Shown here: positions 49,040 through 58,028 of the stretch, one piece after another
Position numbering within the stretch: position 1 is the stretch's first letter
How the letters are laid out: each line of letters opens with the position of its first letter
IMG/VR virus record: IMGVR_UViG_3300039159_000198
Length of the DNA stretch: 64,000 bases
Reading direction: 5' to 3' (one strand)
Origin: a virus
Taxonomy: Duplodnaviria > Heunggongvirae > Uroviricota > Caudoviricetes
Notes under the pieces: generated by a model
What the model saw: only the letters and a program-made list of their open reading frames with translations
Database searches by the model: none
What the model was told of the DNA's origin: nothing
Program-made: the position numbers and the translations under genes

Positions 49040-49127
49040 GGAGAGTGAAGCAGTGCCATGGAGGTGCGACTAGTCTTGAAAACTAGGTCCCGTTCATTCG
49101 GGTGGGGTTCGAGTCCTCCGCTCTCCG
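49040..49127 (+). tRNA. tRNA-Ser (anticodon TGA), class II
   Basis: 7-bp acceptor GGAGAGT/GCTCTCC, anticodon stem CTAGT/ACTAG with loop CTTGAAA, long variable arm CCCG-ttcatt-CGGG, T-loop TTCGAGT. Confidence 0.75.
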
Positions 49128-49309
49128 CGGGTTAGTTAATATTTTATTCTACACCCAAAATAGAAGGCAGTCCGGAGTGACTGATGATGAACGTAATTGT
49201 GGTAATCGTTCTTTAACTAAAAATATCTTACCTGTTCGTATAAAAGTGGTACACTTGTCTTTGACACAAGCGGAAGAGGAGCGTTACCTCTACAGGTTAC
49301 AAAAAATAG

Positions 49310-49391
49310 GGTCAGATGCTAGAGTGGTTAAATAGGTTAGTCTGCAAAACTAATGACATCGTCATCGTCGGTTCGAATCCGACTCTGACCT
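49310..49391 (+). tRNA. tRNA with anticodon GCA (Cys) and an unusual 13-nt variable region
   Basis: acceptor GGTCAGA/TCTGACC, anticodon stem TTAGT/ACTAA with loop CTGCAAA, T-arm GTCGG-TTCGAAT-CCGAC, variable region TGACATCGTCATC. Confidence 0.5.
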
Positions 49392-49398
49392 CAAAAAA

Positions 49399-49470
49399 CG
49401 GGGTGTATTCTCGGAGTGAGAAGCCTGCCTTGGACGCAGGAAGCGGGAAGTGCAACTCTTCTCACCCCGA
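49399..49470 (+). tRNA. tRNA-Pro (anticodon TGG)
   Basis: C1-G72 acceptor CGGGGTG/CACCCCG, D-stem TTCT/AGAA, anticodon stem CCTGC/GCAGG with loop CTTGGAC, T-loop TGCAACT. Confidence 0.6.
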
Positions 49471-49540
49471 CTATTATTAGTCGTAATAAAAATATTTGGT
49501 TCAAATACGACTTTTACGACATATGAATATATTTATATAT

Positions 49541-50074
49541 ATGGAAGAAATTATTAAAAATTGTAAAACAATATCTGAGGCGGTTAGAAATACTCTTGGA
49601 TATGATAATGGTAGAACTAGAAAAAAATTTTTGTCTATTGTTGAAGAACAAAACTTGGATATTACACATTTAAGGTCTAAATCCTTTTTATATGAAAGGG
49701 TTATTAAAAAATGTCCTGTATGTGGTAAAGAATTTGAGGATTTAGTTGGACACCAAAAACAAAAAACAACTTGTTCATATTCTTGTTCTAATACATATTT
49801 TAGAAGTGGGACATCAAACCCCAATTGGAAAAATGATAGTTATAGGTCAACTTGTTTTGATAATCATAAAAAGGAATGTATAATTTGTGGTGAAAATAAA
49901 ATTGTGGCGGTACACCACTATGATGAAAATAGAAATAATAATAAATCAGAAAATTTAATTCCATTGTGCCCAACACACCATCAATATGTACATTCAAGAT
50001 ATAAAAGTGAAGTTATAGGAACAATAAACAAATATCGTGAAGAATTTATAACAAAAAATAATTTGACTTCGTAA
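49541..50074 (+). CDS. HNH endonuclease inserted between tRNA genes
   Basis: CPVCGKE...CIICGENKIVAVHHYDENRNNNKSENLIPLCPTHHQYVH (HNH motif). The start was moved to MEEIIKN. Confidence 0.7.
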   Translation: MEEIIKNCKTISEAVRNTLGYDNGRTRKKFLSIVEEQNLDITHLRSKSFLYERVIKKCPVCGKEFEDLVGHQKQKTTCSYSCSNTYFRSGTSNPNWKNDSYRSTCFDNHKKECIICGENKIVAVHHYDENRNNNKSENLIPLCPTHHQYVHSRYKSEVIGTINKYREEFITKNNLTS

Positions 50075-50077
50075 CTC

Positions 50078-50165
50078 AGTTGGTATATTACCAAACTTTT
50101 AGTTTGGGAATCACACATTCTCGACGAAGGGTTCGGTGGAAACCCAAGAATAGATGATGAATCTA
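50078..50165 (+). ncRNA. tRNA-like remnant (canonical D-loop AGTTGGTA and a TTT-anticodon stem-loop CCAAA-CTTTTAG-TTTGG) lacking a foldable D-stem and T-arm
   Basis: CTTCGT...ACGAAG acceptor-like pairing but no canonical T-arm, so likely a degenerate tRNA-Lys. Confidence 0.3.
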
Positions 50166-50308
50166 TGTCCACCACATTCTCCCTTGAAACATTAAGGTGA
50201 TGTACTAAACTTTTAATTTAGGAAAACAGGGTCAGTACCTGTCAGGGGAACGAGGAGACTGTTATTAATTCATAGTCCTGATGGAGAAGGAATCATAGAA
50301 TTAAATTT

Positions 50309-50379
50309 ACCTCGTTGGCGTAATAGAAGCGTATTTGTCTTACATACAAATGGAGGTGGAGCGTAACCATCACGAGGTA
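50309..50379 (+). tRNA. tRNA-Val-like (anticodon TAC) with non-canonical T-loop AGCGTAA
   Basis: acceptor ACCTCGT/ACGAGGT, D-stem GCGT/GCGT (G-U pairs), anticodon stem TTTGT/ACAAA with loop CTTACAT, T-arm GGTGG-AGCGTAA-CCATC. Confidence 0.45.
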
Positions 50380-50384
50380 CAAAA

Positions 50385-50458
50385 GGGAACAACAGGCAAG
50401 GTGCCGAGCAGGTCTGTAAAACCTCACTGGGTTGGTTCGATTCCAACTGTTCCCACCA
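50385..50458 (+). tRNA. tRNA-Tyr-like (anticodon GTA) with genomically encoded CCA
   Basis: acceptor GGGAACA/TGTTCCC followed by ACCA, perfect T-arm GTTGG-TTCGATT-CCAAC, anticodon loop CTGTAAA on a 4-bp stem AGGT/ACCT, weak D-arm. Confidence 0.5.
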
Positions 50459-50507
50459 ATAATTAAAACACACTTGAACATTTTAATTAGTCGGTATATT
50501 TATAGGT

Positions 50508-50984
50508 ATGGGAGACATATACATAACAAAAGACCAATTGCTTAAAAAGATGAAAGTAACTGAACAATCTGAAAAGAAGGGTGAAGATAAATCACCTGAA
50601 CTAACCGAAACAGGTAACATAGGTAATTTAATTTCAACATTATTACATTCAAGAAACCAAGCACATGTATTTCATTGGCAAACAAAATCAAACTCATCTT
50701 TTGCCGAACATATGGCATTAGGGGGATATTATGATGGGATTGTTGAACTAATGGATGGACTTGTGGAAAGTTACCAAGGAAAACACGACATTATCACAGG
50801 TTATAACTCTTCAAAACTTGAGGATTATAAAGGTGTTGAACAATTAATTTCGTACTTTAAATCAATAGATTCTCAAATTGAGAAAGACCGAAAAAGTGTT
50901 AAAGAATCATACCTTCAAAATCAAATCGATACCATTCAGGAATTGATTTATTCTACGTTGTATAAATTAAGATTTTTAAAATAA
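50508..50984 (+). CDS. Dps/ferritin-like DNA-binding protein
   Basis: IGNLISTLLHSRNQAHVFHWQTKSNSSFAEHMALGGYYDGIVELMDGLVES matches the Dps helix A/B pattern (L..LL...H..HW...G..F...H......E..D.L.E). Confidence 0.5.
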   Translation: MGDIYITKDQLLKKMKVTEQSEKKGEDKSPELTETGNIGNLISTLLHSRNQAHVFHWQTKSNSSFAEHMALGGYYDGIVELMDGLVESYQGKHDIITGYNSSKLEDYKGVEQLISYFKSIDSQIEKDRKSVKESYLQNQIDTIQELIYSTLYKLRFLK

Positions 50985-51048
50985 GAGAATAGTGTTTTCA
51001 TACTAATCCCTCTGATTAAAAGTCGGGGGGATTTTTTTTATAAAAAAG

Positions 51049-51079
51049 TTTGGTGGAATGAAAAAAAGTATTATCTTTG
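51049..51079 (+). promoter_or_regulatory. Bacteroidetes-type promoter (TTTG / TATCTTTG) for the tRNA-Phe array
   Basis: TTTGgtggaatgaaaaaaagtatTATCTTTG, 32 nt upstream of tRNA-Phe. Confidence 0.55.
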
Positions 51080-51110
51080 TACTCACAAAAGAAAACAATT
51101 ATCATTATTT

Positions 51111-51182
51111 GGTACTGTAGCTCAGGGGTAGAGCACTTGGTTGAAGCCCAAGGTGTCGTTGGTTCGATTCCAACCAGTACCA
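51111..51182 (+). tRNA. tRNA-Phe (anticodon GAA)
   Basis: acceptor GGTACTG/CAGTACC, D-arm GCTC-AGGGGTA-GAGC, anticodon stem CTTGG/CCAAG with loop TTGAAGC, T-arm GTTGG-TTCGATT-CCAAC. Confidence 0.8.
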
Positions 51183-51258
51183 CGGAGTCCCGAAATAACG
51201 GGAAACCCCCACTCCCATATGGCAGCCGGTCCGTTAAGCCGGTGAAGTGGGGTAAAAT

Positions 51259-51332
51259 TGGTCTGAAGCTTATACAGTAAAGTACTCGACTGTTAATCGA
51301 GATTCTTGCAGGTGCAAATCCTGTCAGACCAG
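51259..51332 (+). tRNA. tRNA-Asn (anticodon GTT)
   Basis: U1-A72 acceptor TGGTCTG/CAGACCA, D-stem GCTT/AAGT, anticodon stem CTCGA/TCGAG with loop CTGTTAA, T-loop TGCAAAT. Confidence 0.65.
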
Positions 51333-51463
51333 CAAACAAGGAAACAACCCCTGAGTTGGTAAGGCCTTACCCGGACTCAAGAGAAGTAAAGTTACCAAAT
51401 GGGTGCGTAACGCCTTGGACTACAACGGGCTTCATAGAGGTATAAATAGTTGTAGTCAAAATT

Positions 51464-51535
51464 GCTTCTATAGTAGAATGGTAAGCACGCATTCCTGATA
51501 AGAATGAAAAGAAGGTTTGATTCCTTCTAGAAGTA
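51464..51535 (+). tRNA. tRNA-Ile (anticodon GAT)
   Basis: acceptor GCTTCTA/TAGAAGT, anticodon stem CATTC/GAATG with loop CTGATAA, T-arm GAAGG-TTTGATT-CCTTC, weak D-stem. Confidence 0.65.
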
Positions 51536-51548
51536 CAAAATAATATAT

Positions 51549-51622
51549 GGTGATTGTAGCTGAATTGGTAAAGCGTCTGATTGTGGTTCAGGAGATTGTG
51601 GGTTCGAGTCCCATCTTTCACA
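51549..51622 (+). tRNA. tRNA-His-like (anticodon GTG) with extra 5' G and imperfect acceptor
   Basis: anticodon stem TCTGA/TCAGG with loop TTGTGGT, T-arm GTGGG-TTCGAGT-CCCAT, acceptor G-GTGATTG/CTTTCAC with two U-U mismatches. Confidence 0.45.
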
Positions 51623-51847
51623 CGACATCTCCCAAAGGGAGAAGGTCCTGGTCAGAGATTTATTCTTGCAAAGGCAATACCTAAAGTTGCCCGTCTAATC
51701 TACGGGATTAGTTAAAAAGAGAGACAGTAAATCTGTAGTTAAAAGGTAGAGTGTATTAATAGACGAAAAAGGGTTTGGAGTAGTCTGACGTCACCCATCG
51801 CATTTAACCATAAACCCCGAAAGACCCGAAACGTCTCTCTTTATTTT

Positions 51848-51919
51848 ATTTCTATAGTTCAACGGATAGAACAATTGACTACGAATCAATAGATGGTGGT
51901 TCGAATCCATCTAGAAATA
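51848..51919 (+). tRNA. tRNA-Arg (anticodon ACG)
   Basis: acceptor ATTTCTA/TAGAAAT, D-arm GTTC-AACGGATA-GAAC, anticodon stem ATTGA/TCAAT with loop CTACGAA, T-arm GGTGG-TTCGAAT-CCATC. Confidence 0.7.
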
Positions 51920-51928
51920 CTAACATAC

Positions 51929-51990
51929 GGGTCGCAGACAAGGTGTCGGTCAGGTCTCTAAAACCTCGACGGCTTGTTCTAAAAATTGGA
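51929..51990 (+). pseudogene. half-tRNA pseudogene paralogous to the 50385 tRNA; anticodon loop CTCTAAA (CUA, amber-reading)
   Basis: GGGTCGCAGACAAGGTGTCGGTCAGGTCTCTAAAACCTCG aligns with GGGAACAACAGGCAAGGTGCCGAGCAGGTCTGTAAAACCTCA, but the 3' half (T-arm and acceptor) is absent and is overlapped by tRNA-Ser(GCT). Confidence 0.4.
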
Positions 51991-52074
51991 GAATAGATTA
52001 ATATTGGTTCGTGATGGCATCCTGCTAAGATGTTCCGGGTAAAACCGGTGAGGGTTCGATTCCCTCGTTCTCCG
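51988..52074 (+). tRNA. tRNA-Ser (anticodon GCT), class II
   Basis: acceptor GGAGAAT/GTTCTCC, anticodon stem GCATC/GATGT with loop CTGCTAA, long variable arm CCGG-gtaaaa-CCGG, T-arm GAGGG-TTCGATT-CCCTC. Confidence 0.7.
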
Positions 52075-52343
52075 CAAAAACCTGGTCCCCGCCCTCACAA
52101 TGTGTCTAAGGAACACAGGAGCTGAAAGTACAATCGGGGCGAATGTGGTGGGACACTTTAAAATCTTAGGTACAACGATAAGTTAGCGGGTTCTTATCAA
52201 CTGCCGAGGGGTCAAGGACCAAGGACGGCTCATATCCGACCTTAGAATGGAGCATTACCATTTCTCGGTACAAAATTTCTTAAATATTTCTTTGTCAATT
52301 CAAAACTTATCCATACCTTTGTCGAAATTAAAAACAAAGAAAT

Positions 52344-54954: not shown

Positions 54955-55179
54955 ATGGTTGAGGGGTGGTATAAGGGTTTCTGTAGGAACAATTATGTCG
55001 CTTATTGGGATGGAGAAAAGTTCCAACACCTCCGGTATAAATTCGGATTCATGTTGGACACAATAGAACATTTTGAGGATGTTAAAGAGAAACGATTAGA
55101 TGGGTTTGTTCCGGTTGAGAGAATTGAAAGATTGGCTCCGGATGAGCAATGGAAAATTAAAGATGAAATAGGATATTAA
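54955..55179 (+). CDS. hypothetical protein
   Basis: ORF. Confidence 0.4.
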   Translation: MVEGWYKGFCRNNYVAYWDGEKFQHLRYKFGFMLDTIEHFEDVKEKRLDGFVPVERIERLAPDEQWKIKDEIGY

Positions 55180-55180
55180 G

Positions 55181-55780
55181 ATGATAGATAATTTAGAAGT
55201 AATAAAACCATTATTGAATTTGTCCGAAAAGGGGGATTTTTATTCTTTAATGATTTTAAAGAGAAAGAAAGACCAACCGGAAGGTGAGAGAGATAATCAT
55301 CAGTCGGTTAGAACAATCAAAACATATTGTATTGATAGTATTGACCATCTTGAAAAAAGATACAATGAAATCAAACAAGTATGTGAGATGTTTAAAGCAA
55401 GAGCATACATCCACGTACAGAAACAAAACCATAGTGATGTTTCATTGGATATGTTGGCATTACTTGCTGAGAGAATCAAAAATGGTGTGAAAAACCAAAA
55501 AGGTTTATTTGATTCAGTTGTGGGTCAAATTAAAACACACGAGAAAAGATGGATTATTGATGTTGATACAAAGGACAAACAATTCCTGAGAGACATTACA
55601 ATGGATTTGATGGAGATTCAACCGGTGGGGAATAAAGTTGAAAAAGTAATCCCAACCAAAAACGGATTTCATTTGATTACTTGTAAGTTTAATGTGATGG
55701 AGTTTAAGGAAAAGTATCCGGACGTAGAAATCCATAAAAAAAATCCGACTTTGTTGTTTTTACCGAATAGTTTAGAATAA
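55181..55780 (+). CDS. hypothetical protein
   Basis: ORF. Confidence 0.5.
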   Translation: MIDNLEVIKPLLNLSEKGDFYSLMILKRKKDQPEGERDNHQSVRTIKTYCIDSIDHLEKRYNEIKQVCEMFKARAYIHVQKQNHSDVSLDMLALLAERIKNGVKNQKGLFDSVVGQIKTHEKRWIIDVDTKDKQFLRDITMDLMEIQPVGNKVEKVIPTKNGFHLITCKFNVMEFKEKYPDVEIHKKNPTLLFLPNSLE

Positions 55781-55854
55781 AATTAAACCCCCTCTACGTA
55801 ACGAAAGCGCTACGACACGTACTATCTGGCAGGTCAGGTGGGGGGTTTTTAAAC

Positions 55855-55937
55855 AGTCAGGTGGCGGAATTGGTATATGCATAACTATAAGGTTGAAAGC
55901 GATTGTTATTTTACAGGTTCGAATCCTGTCCTGACTA
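55855..55937 (+). tRNA. tRNA-like gene X1 (Leu/Tyr-type D-arm GGCGGAATTGGTA, canonical T-arm ACAGG-TTCGAAT-CCTGT) with non-canonical anticodon region
   Basis: acceptor AGTCAGG/CCTGACT. The only 5-bp stem in the middle (ATAAC/GTTAT) encloses a 19-nt loop. It is a paralog of X2 and X3. Confidence 0.4.
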
Positions 55938-55949
55938 CAAGTATTAAAT

Positions 55950-56264
55950 ATGAATATAGATTTATTTAGACATTGGATTCCTGATTTAAGACAAACAAAG
56001 AACAAGAATGCTTATGTTGCAAAGCAATGTCCTTTCTGTCCAAGAACACCACATTCAAAATCATTTAGAATTAATCTTAAACTCAAAGTTTGGAAATGTT
56101 ATCAATGCGGTAGAGGTGGTAAAAATTTTAATAAATTTGTTCATTATTTAAAAGGTAGGGACTACAGAAGAAATAGTATTAAATACTTGAAGAGAATAGG
56201 TCGTCAACCAATGAGTATTCCTATTGTGGTTCAATACGGATGTGAAAGTTCATTACCGTTTTGA
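55950..56264 (+). CDS. zinc-ribbon hypothetical protein
   Basis: CPFCPR...CYQCGRGG. Confidence 0.4.
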   Translation: MNIDLFRHWIPDLRQTKNKNAYVAKQCPFCPRTPHSKSFRINLKLKVWKCYQCGRGGKNFNKFVHYLKGRDYRRNSIKYLKRIGRQPMSIPIVVQYGCESSLPF

Positions 56265-56307
56265 CGTACAACCCGTGAGATAGAAAGACGAATAAGCGGG
56301 TTAAATT

Positions 56308-56397
56308 GGTCAGGTAGTTTAATGGTAGAACAGCTAGATGACTCAGATACTGATTCTGATAATATTGCTTATACAGGTTCGAATCCTGTTCTGACTA
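56308..56397 (+). tRNA. tRNA-like gene X2 (class-II length, same T-arm as X1 and X3), anticodon unresolved
   Basis: acceptor GGTCAGG/TCTGACT (two G-U pairs), D-arm GTT-taatggtaga-AAC, candidate anticodon stem TCAGA/TCTGA with loop TACTGAT (no U33). Confidence 0.4.
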
Positions 56398-56743
56398 CAA
56401 ATAAAGTTCAAAATAAATAAAGATTGGGTTCATTTTATGATGATTATGAGCCCGATTTTACGTATATTTGAGCCATAAAATAAAATTAACTATGAAAAAA
56501 CAATTTGATATGCTTTGAGGTCTACTCAACAATAGACTGAAAAGTTATGAGTATAAATGTAAACAGAGCCAAGTTCAATAAAGAGACTTGTTCAAAAGAT
56601 TACAAAAGAATTTTATTAGACGAATTATACCCGATGTATTGGGATGAGGGTCTAAATTTCATACACGGTCATTCGGCTTCAAAATACAGAAGTCACAAAA
56701 CGTGGAAATACAATAGAAAAACACAATATAAAGAATAGGAATA

Positions 56744-57247
56744 ATGAGTGTAAAACACAGTAAATGTTTAGTATTAGATTCAAATTTTATACCAAGAAGT
56801 ATAATTTCAACTGAGAGAGCGTTTGTAATTAATTACAAGGGTAATGCGGTTGTCTTGGCTGAGCATCCTGAACTTTTTTTACATCCTGTTTATAAATTTA
56901 AAAAACCATCAATTATTCGGGTTTTTAAGTATGTTAAAACACAAATCCATAAGGTTCCGTTAAATCGTGAAAACGTATATAGAAGAGATGGTTTTTGTTG
57001 TGTTTATTGTGGTGATGAAAATCGTAAAACATTGACGTTAGACCACGTAATACCTCAATCAAAGGGTGGTAGAGACTCTTGGGATAATTTGGTTACTGCG
57101 TGTAAAAAGTGTAATAGTGAAAAGTCAAATTTAACTTTGGAGGAATATGGTAAAGAAATACCTCAACCAAGGAGACCTCACTATTTAATGTTAATGAAAC
57201 AGATTACACACATCCCAAAAGAATGGGAAGATTATTTATTCTTTTAA
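56744..57247 (+). CDS. HNH endonuclease located between tRNA-like genes
   Basis: CVYCGDENRKTLTLDHVIPQSKGGRDSWDNLVTACKKCNSEK, a classic HNH motif. Confidence 0.75.
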   Translation: MSVKHSKCLVLDSNFIPRSIISTERAFVINYKGNAVVLAEHPELFLHPVYKFKKPSIIRVFKYVKTQIHKVPLNRENVYRRDGFCCVYCGDENRKTLTLDHVIPQSKGGRDSWDNLVTACKKCNSEKSNLTLEEYGKEIPQPRRPHYLMLMKQITHIPKEWEDYLFF

Positions 57248-57254
57248 AGAATAA

Positions 57255-57403
57255 GGTCAGGTGGCGGAATGGTAGACGATAAAGTGGGTTACCCTTAGAG
57301 TAAAACCTATCATATATAAAATAAAGGCAGTTTACTGCTTATGATAGTCATTGGTAAATTTGAAAATGTTACTCAATTACAGGTTCGAATCCTGTCCTGA
57401 CCA
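57255..57403 (+). tRNA. tRNA-like gene X3 with ~70-nt internal insertion (intron-like or expanded arm)
   Basis: 5' GGTCAGGTGGCGGAATGGTAGACG and 3' ACAGGTTCGAATCCTGTCCTGACCA are typical tRNA ends. The interior contains an 8-bp hairpin CTATCATA/TATGATAG. Confidence 0.35.
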
Positions 57404-57620
57404 CAAAATTTAAGAATTTGATAGTTCCCGGTGATAATCGCCGTTATCTAAGACAATGATAAATAAAAACAGACATATAACTTGCGTCAGTGGTAAATGA
57501 ATGTGAGGTTCGGAATAGTCAACCAAACCAAGAGACCGCCGAGGGTAAACACAGGGATGACCCCTGTCCACCCCCCAAGATGAAATATCGGAAAATCATT
57601 CTGTCTGTTTTTTTTACATG

Positions 57621-57693
57621 GATATTGAATCACAATTGGACGTGCGACCGGTGTAAGGCCGGGAGGATATAGGTTCGAACCCTATCAATATCC
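57621..57693 (+). tRNA. tRNA-like gene, candidate anticodon TAA (Leu) on a CCGG/CCGG stem
   Basis: acceptor GATATTG/CAATATC, T-arm ATAGG-TTCGAAC-CCTAT, D-stem CAC/GTG, anticodon loop TGTAAGG with G at position 33. Confidence 0.4.
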
Positions 57694-57734
57694 CAAAAAT
57701 TAAACTTTTTTTTTAATCACGTATATTTATTAAC

Positions 57735-58028
57735 GTGAAAAAATTTATAATCACAGAAGAAGAAAAAGATGAAATATTGTCAAAATATAATCTAATAAAA
57801 GAACCGGACAATAACTTTTTGAAATTTAGATACTCAGGAAATGAGTTCCCAACGGATGAAATGAGGGAATGGTTTCGTAATAAGGTTGAGTATATGGATG
57901 AATGGGATGAATTAGATAGAGATTTACAGATGGACATTGTTAGAAATAATTTTTTTGATGTTTTCCACGATGAACTATCTGATTTAAGTTATATGGAAAT
58001 GTTAGATGTTTTTAATAAATGTTATTAA
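57735..58028 (+). CDS. hypothetical protein, ITE-leader family (MKKFIITEEEKDEIL)
   Basis: leader motif. It is a tandem paralog of 58030..58413. Confidence 0.5.
   Translation: MKKFIITEEEKDEILSKYNLIKEPDNNFLKFRYSGNEFPTDEMREWFRNKVEYMDEWDELDRDLQMDIVRNNFFDVFHDELSDLSYMEMLDVFNKCY

Follow-up and report, generated by a model that had tools for sequence, protein, structure and literature searches.

The viral record IMGVR_UViG_3300039159_000198 (Caudoviricetes; IMG/VR) was analysed over a stretch of 64,000 nucleotides, hereafter the window, which carries three small RNA genes, X1, X2, and X3, beside a phage transfer RNA (tRNA) cluster and on the same strand as the tRNAs. ARAGORN called nine ordinary tRNAs at 49040-52075 on the + strand. 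The 17-mer ACAGGTTCGAATCCTGT, a tRNA-type T arm, has exactly three copies in the window (at 55913, 56373, and 57379, always on the + strand) and had none in 100 shuffles of it. Each copy is followed by (C/T)CTGAC(T/C), A73, and CAA, and the 7-nt strand pairs with (A/G)GTCAGG at 55855, 56308, and 57255. The three elements with common ends that the initial annotation had listed are thus confirmed at their coordinates (Table 1), except that X1 starts with AGTCAGG and not, as given there, with GGTCAGG.

All three elements have a 7-bp acceptor, a 5-bp T stem with a TTCRANY loop, and a D stem-loop with GG; between the D and T arms lies a non-tRNA segment, here called the cargo. Folds constrained to the acceptor, D, and T stems are at most about 1.2 kcal/mol from the unconstrained minimum free energy (-16.7 versus -17.3 kcal/mol for X1, -19.4 versus -20.2 for X2, and -36.5 versus -37.7 for X3). 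A hidden Markov model of the 3' module matched X1, X2, and X3 and nothing else in the window (36.8, 33.1, and 34.0 bits), and a model of the 5' module matched X1 and X3. A D arm of the Leu/Tyr class-II type had been assigned to all three; this holds for X1 and X3, whose D arm is Leu-type (GTGGCGGAAT(T)GGTA), but not for X2, whose D arm is of class-I type. Accordingly, X1 and X3 display A73, the A15:U48 Levitt pair, G18G19, and a 3-bp D stem with a Leu-type loop, all features of tRNA(Leu), while X2 has A73, A15, and U48 but the class-I D arm. X2 looks like a hybrid: its D arm is of class I, its acceptor contains two G-U pairs, and its cargo module appears borrowed; an orthologue search with its D arm returned no matches.

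Table 1. Coordinates of X1, X2, and X3, their parts, and the open reading frames (ORFs) and sequence features around them (aa, amino acids)
Feature	Position	Strand	Description
5'-module start copy GGTCAGGTGG	55832..55841	+	first 10 nt of the 5' module, inside a terminator-like hairpin (55788-55850) upstream of X1
X1	55855..55937	+	83-nt tRNA-like RNA gene
X1 acceptor	55855-55861 / 55930-55936	+	A73 at 55937
X1 D arm	55864-55880	+	Leu-type; stem G10-C26, C11-G25, G12-U24
X1 cargo	55881-55912	+	5-bp stem ATAAC/GTTAT around 19 nt, then TTT
X1 T arm	55913-55929	+	
104-aa ORF	55950..56264	+	between X1 and X2; CHC2 (DnaG-type) zinc ribbon, PF01807, E 9.8e-07; PHROG primase-like matches
X2	56308..56397	+	90-nt tRNA-like RNA gene
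X2 acceptor	56308-56314 / 56390-56396	+	G1-U72 and G7-U66 wobbles; A73 at 56397
X2 D arm	56317-56331	+	class-I type, TAGTTTAATGGTAGAAC; 4-bp stem
X2 cargo module	56330..56368	+	CAGCTAGATGAC TCAGA TACTGAT TCTGA TAATATTGC; recurs without tRNA scaffold
X2 cargo	56332-56372	+	
X2 T arm	56373-56389	+	
63-aa ORF	56547-56738		no family match
167-aa HNH endonuclease	56744..57247	+	stops 8 nt before X3
X3	57255..57403	+	149-nt tRNA-like RNA gene
X3 acceptor	57255-57261 / 57396-57402	+	G1-C72; A73 at 57403
X3 D arm	57264-57279	+	Leu-type, weakened (GACGA in place of GACGC)
X3 cargo	57280-57378	+	nested hairpins including CTATCATA...TATGATAG and GCAG-TTTA-CTGC
X3 T arm	57379-57395	+	

A phage family with a common scaffold and different cargos

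The viral contigs of IMG/VR were scanned for the 23-mer ACAGGTTCGAATCCTGTYCTGAC of the 3' module, which was found in at least 120 contigs with one to nine copies per locus. Among 185,579 prokaryotic species, represented by one genome each, it occurs in 18 contigs, all of them from metagenome-assembled genomes (MAGs) and half from Bacteroidota bins; no isolate genome in this set carries a copy. Cultured phages yielded no full family member, a scaffold-only query giving partial T-arm matches to ordinary tRNAs, and no similarity to cultured phages was found for positions 55000-58000 of the window. X1, X2, and X3 are members of a large phage-specific family and share its defining features, which are a 5' (A/G)GTCAGG followed by U8, a 3' T arm identical to theirs followed by (C/T)CTGAC(T/C) and A73, a non-tRNA insert between the D and T arms, and a phage context. 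The canonical tRNA-Leu genes of these phages are quite unlike the family in their acceptor and T arms; together with the distribution of the 23-mer, this indicates that the scaffold is neither a copy of a host tRNA nor an ordinary phage tRNA-Leu. No description of the family was found in the literature searched, including by sequence string, and Rfam has no model of it.

From all loci fetched, which are numbered with the prefix L, we pooled 216 unique members collected with scaffold-derived patterns. The acceptor AGTCAGG/CCTGACT is present in 86% of them and a T arm identical to that of the window in 72%; A73 is found in 92%, U48 in 83%, and U8 in about 97%. A14/A15 and G18G19 are retained across the family, and about half of it has the full Leu-type feature set. 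Nearly all extracted members begin with AGTCAGGTGGCGGAAT(T)GGTAGACGC, even though this 5' end was not imposed by the search. The interiors range from 10 to 145 nt (median 52) and fall into about 180 classes that are unrelated to each other, 153 of which are singletons.

Selection acts on the RNA fold of the scaffold. Across the 216 members, the acceptor and T-stem positions pair in 96-100% of cases, and one-sided changes yield G-U pairs. The D stem, which was not used to collect members, covaries at pair 11-24 (CG 151, UA 18, AU 2) and at pair 12-23 (GC 142, UA 9, AU 8, CG 6). One cargo class, GTGCCATTGGGG..G..CCAAGAAAG, is found in 43 contigs on diverged scaffolds, and the alignment of its 22 distinct sequences has double compensatory changes in eight of 25 consensus pairs. 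These are located in the T stem (AU/GC, CG/UA, AU/UA, and GC/AU/UA), in the acceptor (CG/GC and AU/GC), and in the cargo itself (GC/AU; CG 18, UA 4). Conservation of the flanks is limited to aAaAT before position 1 and CAAA after A73, so the conserved unit is a tRNA-sized transcript with tRNA ends and no encoded CCA. A CA(A/T) trailer also stands behind the canonical tRNAs of these phages.

Cargos are conserved within a class and different between classes. Within classes, which are small samples, interior identity is 0.84-0.96 (mean 0.89) compared with 0.62-0.68 for the 80-nt flanks and a floor of about 0.55 for unrelated flanks, and interiors are more stable than their dinucleotide shuffles (mean z -0.54, p 5e-11, n = 165). 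Two further viral contigs, whose flanks are unrelated, have the X1 cargo (TAACTAKAAGGTTGAAAGCGATTGTTAT) on the same scaffold. In X2, the 39-nt cargo module (Table 1) is identical at 39 of 39 positions to 9288-9326 of L266, an otherwise unrelated viral contig, and about 95% identical to a segment of L264. A module of about 35 nt within it (CUAGAUGAC-UCAGA-UACUGAU-UCUGA-UAAUAUUGC) caps long ordinary hairpins in L267, L270, and L269/L264, where the closing stem differs in sequence each time, covaries, and has no tRNA scaffold around it. The occurrence of this module on plain hairpins is the clearest sign that the insert is a portable functional part and the tRNA-like body its carrier.

A small-protein reading of X2 was also considered. 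The ATG at 56322, in the D loop, opens a 32-codon frame (56322-56420, MVEQLDDSDTDSDNIAYTGSNPVLTTNKVQNK), and the stretch DDSDTDSDN is likewise open in small ORFs of L266 and L264. The start codon is absent in L267 and L270, two other contexts of the same RNA module, and we therefore judge the ORF coincidental to a conserved RNA module. As possible antisense RNAs, the cargos of X1, X2, and X3 gave chance-level matches only within the 64-kb window.

Interiors and the question of an anticodon arm

The initial annotation had described interiors without a standard anticodon arm, and neither ARAGORN nor the Rfam tRNA model folds X1-X3 as ordinary tRNAs. The Rfam model matches X1 (41.8 bits) and X2 (45.4 bits) above threshold, but only by way of a local insert over the anticodon region (19 nt in X1, 32 nt in X2); X3 has neither an Rfam tRNA match nor an ARAGORN call. 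ARAGORN reports X1 as 'tRNA-???' and X2 as Gln (CUG) in a shifted register. Neither program found in the three elements an anticodon arm in register after position 26, with a 5-bp stem, U33 in a 7-nt loop, and the anticodon at 34-36, nor a Leu anticodon (NAG/NAA) with a long variable arm. The helices described for the interiors are nevertheless real: X1 has its 5-bp stem enclosing 19 nt, X3 its 8-bp hairpin, and the best stem of X2, the UCAGA/UCUGA hairpin, encloses a 7-nt loop, UACUGAU, that indeed lacks U33. In Rfam searches of the region at permissive E-values and of 13 related loci at gathering thresholds, the tRNA model alone reached its gathering score at the elements, with all other models at E > 0.6.

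Across the family, ARAGORN called a tRNA in 50 of 215 members, and in 43-54 of 215 when the interiors alone were shuffled (ten trials), with scattered anticodons. The call rate thus gives no sign of an anticodon arm beyond chance, and the conserved scaffold accounts for every call. A practical consequence is that tRNA finders miss these genes or assign arbitrary anticodons to them; since the isotype calls are scattered and occur at the shuffled rate, tRNA counts and codon-usage arguments for such phages are contaminated.

These results make it highly improbable that the elements are decoding tRNAs, whether interrupted by an intron or equipped with an expanded or recoded anticodon loop as in suppressors and frameshift suppressors, two options that had been raised for X1-X3. 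Such tRNAs would explain why X1 and X2 pass the Rfam tRNA threshold and why X2 holds a 5-bp stem and 7-nt loop in which ARAGORN reads CUG, and ARAGORN finds Leu anticodons in eight real members compared with 1-8 (mean about 3) after shuffling. The intron option is contradicted by the interiors themselves, which match no Rfam intron family, at the window elements or in the 13 related loci, and have no conserved anticodon-stem halves beside the D or T arm. Interiors of just 10-20 nt cannot hold two exon halves plus an intron, and numerous short cargos are plain hairpins capped by tetraloops. Group I introns have a self-splicing core of about 200 nt or more, for which all family interiors are too short. 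A suppressor or expanded anticodon fares no better, as the X1 loop has 19 nt, that of X2 has no U33, X3 has none, and ARAGORN calls do not exceed the shuffled rate; the ORFs of the window, such as a 423-aa SHMT, are intact under code 11 and give no sign of recoding. The remaining option of the initial annotation, a tRNA-derived regulatory RNA, agrees with the evidence insofar as it describes a tRNA-derived, non-decoding RNA.

Proposed carriage of cargo by a tRNA-shaped scaffold, and its alternatives

We favour, with a probability of roughly 0.6, the reading that X1, X2, and X3 do not decode but are RNAs with tRNA-type processing, whose tRNA(Leu)-derived scaffold carries variable, usually structured cargo. 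The constant part would consist of the acceptor stem, T arm, and D arm of a class-II tRNA(Leu), that is, an acceptor/T minihelix plus the elbow, and the cargo of 10-145 nt would stand in place of both the anticodon arm and the variable arm. The RNAs would be transcribed with or like the phage tRNAs, cleaved by RNase P at the 5' end and by RNase Z after A73, and presumably given a CCA after cleavage, as none is encoded. Folding into an L-shaped top half may then provide precise ends and resistance to nucleases, by analogy with the engineered tRNA scaffold, while the cargo would confer a specific function, most likely the binding of a host or phage factor.

About half of the family, X1 and X3 included, has a Leu-type D arm and may be leucylated, as these members keep the elements required by Escherichia coli leucyl-tRNA synthetase (LeuRS): A73, A15:U48, G18G19, and the D/T-loop contacts. 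In a published account of this enzyme, E. coli tRNA(Leu) stripped of its anticodon and variable arms is still charged, with identity described there as residing in A73, A15-U48, G18G19, and D/T-loop contacts (PMC9976931). By this analogy leucylation of the Leu-type members is plausible, and the LeuRS identity set kept in the scaffold raises the possibility of aminoacylated RNAs that never decode.

Several observations weigh against the carrier reading. The invariance of the scaffold ends is partly a matter of ascertainment, because members were gathered with scaffold patterns. Even so, the near-invariance in primary sequence across unrelated contigs exceeds what a fold alone would need and hints at a sequence-specific partner or a DNA-level process. 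Partial copies, namely the fragment at 55832-55841, a 5'-only copy in L220, and a 5'-less copy in L116, mark part of the family as debris. Taken alone, the A+T-rich cargos of X1 and X2 show no significant structure, with whole-RNA z scores of -0.35 and -0.79 (the fold of X3 has z -2.17 relative to shuffles), and a search with one exact 22-mer found no other copy of the X3 cargo. No motif common to all cargos emerged either, the k-mer enrichments (AGGT, GTAA, and CCTAA, for example) being modest. Finally, many natural members begin their cargo with a single-stranded stretch, whereas the insertion point of the engineered scaffold retains a helix resembling an anticodon stem.

Some of these points would follow naturally if the elements were decayed tRNA(Leu) duplicates, produced by recombination or homing traffic, whose RNase P- and RNase Z-recognised ends are kept because they cut a polycistronic transcript between small genes and whose interior has no function. 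Each element of the window sits between small ORFs, genes for HNH and GIY-YIG-like endonucleases are frequent nearby, the HNH gene moves among relatives, and partial or 5'-only copies, chimeras with a second T arm, and the poorly structured interiors of X1 and X2 all fit decay. We nonetheless consider this explanation unlikely, because functionless interiors should not stay 0.84-0.96 identical across contigs with unrelated flanks, carry compensatory changes in their helices, or be stabler on average than shuffles. Many members also stand in RNA arrays with no intervening ORF to be separated, and a canonical tRNA lies within 2 kb of only 50 of 179 copies in the loci listed.

The extreme conservation of the acceptor and T arm, far above that of the canonical tRNA-Leu of the same phages, could instead mean that the invariant acceptor, T arm, and elbow are the active part and titrate a tRNA-binding factor, such as a tRNA-targeting defence toxin acting at the acceptor end, LeuRS, EF-Tu, or a modification enzyme, with an interior that need only avoid being an anticodon arm. 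The retained LeuRS identity set and the multiple copies per genome fit a decoy, as does the lack of a co-occurring phage protein (the best family is present at 18 of the 120 loci listed), which would be expected of a host partner. Such a decoy leaves the conservation and covariation of distinct cargos unexplained, as well as the presence of one cargo module on non-tRNA hairpins, and among the 185,579 species genomes there is no bacterial genome with a tRNA of this acceptor and T arm to mimic; we regard it as quite unlikely. Very unlikely, in our estimation, is a role mainly at the DNA level, in which the invariant 25-nt ends serve as recombination or homing sites for the spread and swapping of inserts between co-infecting phages and any RNA function is secondary. 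Identical ends with sharp boundaries around unrelated interiors, the same cargo in unrelated neighbourhoods (including the 39-nt segment shared at 100% identity by contigs that are unrelated elsewhere), 5'-only copies and hybrid elements, and mobile endonuclease genes nearby are all expected of cassettes. A DNA site has no need, however, for stem changes that keep RNA pairing through G-U pairs and double substitutions, nor for strict co-orientation with tRNA genes, and no recombinase or endonuclease is consistently linked. Since the invariance of the acceptor and T arm goes beyond what folding needs, the decoy and cassette models are both live and could coexist with the carriage of cargo that we favour.

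A broader version of the carrier reading, offered tentatively, is a modular RNA display in phages of freshwater bacteria, probably Bacteroidota. A near-invariant and probably leucylatable tRNA top half would be recognised by host tRNA enzymes or by one sequence-specific partner, and hundreds of structured modules would be mounted on it. Recombination at the invariant ends would carry these modules from genome to genome and from one scaffold, whether tRNA-like or a plain hairpin, to another, giving a cassette-like repertoire of small effector RNAs. If true, this display system would resemble integron cassettes, or the synthetic tRNA scaffold, in its logic.

In architecture the closest known system is the engineered tRNA scaffold of Ponchon and Dardel, which retains the acceptor, T, and D arms and has a structured insert where the anticodon stem-loop would be; such RNAs are processed and protected in E. 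coli with inserts of up to about 250 nt (PMC3753655). That scaffold is man-made, based on tRNA-Lys3 or tRNA-Met, and used one per construct, whereas the phage family is natural, is built on a tRNA(Leu)-type chassis, replaces the variable arm too, and often starts its cargo single-stranded. In setting, the closest natural analogue is the pair of T4 RNAs RNAC and RNAD (species 1 and 2 RNAs), small stable RNAs that lie co-oriented in the phage tRNA cluster, adjoin a homing endonuclease gene, and still have no known function (PMC3014915, PMC9697503). RNAC has a tRNA-type T arm at its 3' end (CCGGGTTCGAATCCCGG), but we found no homology of the family to rnaC or rnaD beyond 11-14 nt of the universal T loop. 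T4 has one copy each of RNAC and RNAD and no family with constant scaffold and variable cargo. A Leu-type D arm is absent as well, and RNAC pairs imperfectly in its acceptor-like stem.

The D arm GCG-GAAT(T)GGTAGA-CGC, A14/A15, G18G19, U48, the T loop, and A73 match bacterial class-II tRNA(Leu). The family differs from it in having no anticodon arm, in an acceptor and T arm that are seen in no bacterial isolate genome (only in the 18 MAG contigs) and are unlike the phages' own tRNA-Leu, and, in X2, in the class-I D arm. Transfer-messenger RNA (tmRNA) likewise has tRNA-like acceptor and T-arm ends around a large non-tRNA interior, and phage copies are found in the same islands. Family members have no G3:U70 (pair 3-70 is U-A in 216 of 216), no tag ORF, and no pseudoknots, have a true D stem, and are far smaller; neither ARAGORN nor Rfam called a tmRNA in the window. 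The TMERs of gammaherpesviruses, tRNA-microRNA chimeras, do not decode either and borrow a tRNA-like module through which tRNA enzymes recognise them, but they belong to a eukaryotic Pol III context and carry their cargo hairpins on the 3' side of a complete tRNA-like unit. The bacterial Y RNA YrlA, as presented in one report (PMC4201824), also reuses such a module for recognition by tRNA enzymes, and ends in a Ro-binding stem rather than an acceptor. In neither YrlA nor the TMERs is an insert known to replace the anticodon arm on an invariant scaffold, and with tmRNA, YrlA, and viral tRNA-like structures the common ground is the idea of a tRNA-like module only. The organisation of constant scaffold and variable cargo is thus a new feature among the tRNA-like, non-decoding RNAs of phage tRNA islands.

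Should the scaffold reading be true, phages would have reached the solution that RNA engineers use for stable, precisely processed foreign RNA in bacteria. The approximately 180 cargo classes in a small sample form a catalogue of unstudied RNAs, whose targets could include host defence or translation factors, and the family may throw light on T4 RNAC and RNAD and on other small RNAs from phage tRNA clusters that lack an explanation.

Neighbouring genes and other RNA elements

Family members share the orientation of canonical tRNAs within 2 kb in 208 pairs to 0, and that of other family copies in 109 pairs to 0 (loci listed). Folding of the flanks is barely above shuffles and a sigma-70 scan is at background, so that neither points to an upstream hairpin or promoter. 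Clustering of ORFs from the 120 loci listed revealed no consistently linked protein family; the top families resemble ordinary phage genes, such as those for a terminase and a GIY-YIG-type endonuclease, by the look of their sequences alone.

In the window, a gene for a 199-aa protein (55181-55780) lies upstream of the RNA-rich island; it is conserved, and its relatives were found in 340 viral contigs, the longest of 309 kb. The initial annotation had placed one protein gene between each pair of elements. This stands for the 104-aa ORF between X1 and X2, but the 'HNH' gene given as 56547..57247 is in fact two ORFs in different frames (Table 1). Relatives of the HNH endonuclease (75-81% aa identity; loci L122-L145) lie upstream or downstream of the 199-aa gene at varying distances, and this shifting position among related phages is what a mobile gene of the homing type would show.

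In the closest relatives, the slot of X1 after the 199-aa gene is occupied by a conserved 93-nt family member (L122 6669-6761; also in L123, L124, L128, L135, L058, L220, and L264) that has the family acceptor, a compensated T arm (AGAGG/CCTCT), and an internal second T-arm-like hairpin, GGTCGGTTCGAGTCCGATGG. The fragment GGTCAGGTGG upstream of X1 may be a leftover of the member found in this slot in relatives, which the window would have lost.

Long-insert tRNA-like genes with other acceptor and T arms were also observed (L222 6294-6457, L037 6420-6518, L050 1916-2035, L063 7082-7190, L124 12303-12417, L136 10694-10810, and L138 4626-4742), some with a duplicated T arm. The insert-bearing architecture is therefore not limited to the AGTCAGG scaffold, and these genes together with the partial copies point to frequent recombination in such islands. 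The minus strand of L264 (4789-6383) is a dense RNA island with five or six family members in 1.6 kb, and L012, the locus with the most copies, has seven exact matches to the 23-mer within 5 kb; in both, the stretches between members appear structured without a scaffold. Phage tmRNA genes in islands with family members are located at 5724-6218 of L072 and 1088-1533 of L014 (Rfam 68.5 and 59.1 bits).

Directly after X3, positions 57465-57612 may hold another small RNA gene: a long closing stem (AAACAGACA...TGTCTGTT) surrounds a multibranched core rich in G+C, with a T run after it (fold z -2.1 for 57405-57705; no Rfam match). A tRNA-like element on a different scaffold follows at 57620-57698 (fold z -2.77), with an 8-bp acceptor (GGATATTG/CAATATCC), the T arm ATAGGTTCGAACCCTAT, and a CCGG/CCGG stem whose loop, TGTAAGG, lacks U33; it has no ARAGORN or Rfam call and no copy in the loci fetched. 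Locus L268 (metagenome contig Ga0307935_1002657, 5429 nt) is identical to the window over the approximately 230 nt inspected around X2, and the two probably derive from the same phage population, judging by this identity. Within the tRNA cluster, a tRNA at 51259-51332 scores 53.7 bits with Rfam and was missed by ARAGORN; its anticodon loop is CUGUUAA (GUU, Asn), and its T loop, UGCAAAU, is unusual. An 82-nt tRNA-Cys(GCA) with a long extra arm is encoded at 49310-49391, and its acceptor, GGTCAGA/TCTGACC, is near the family sequence GGTCAGG/CCTGACC.

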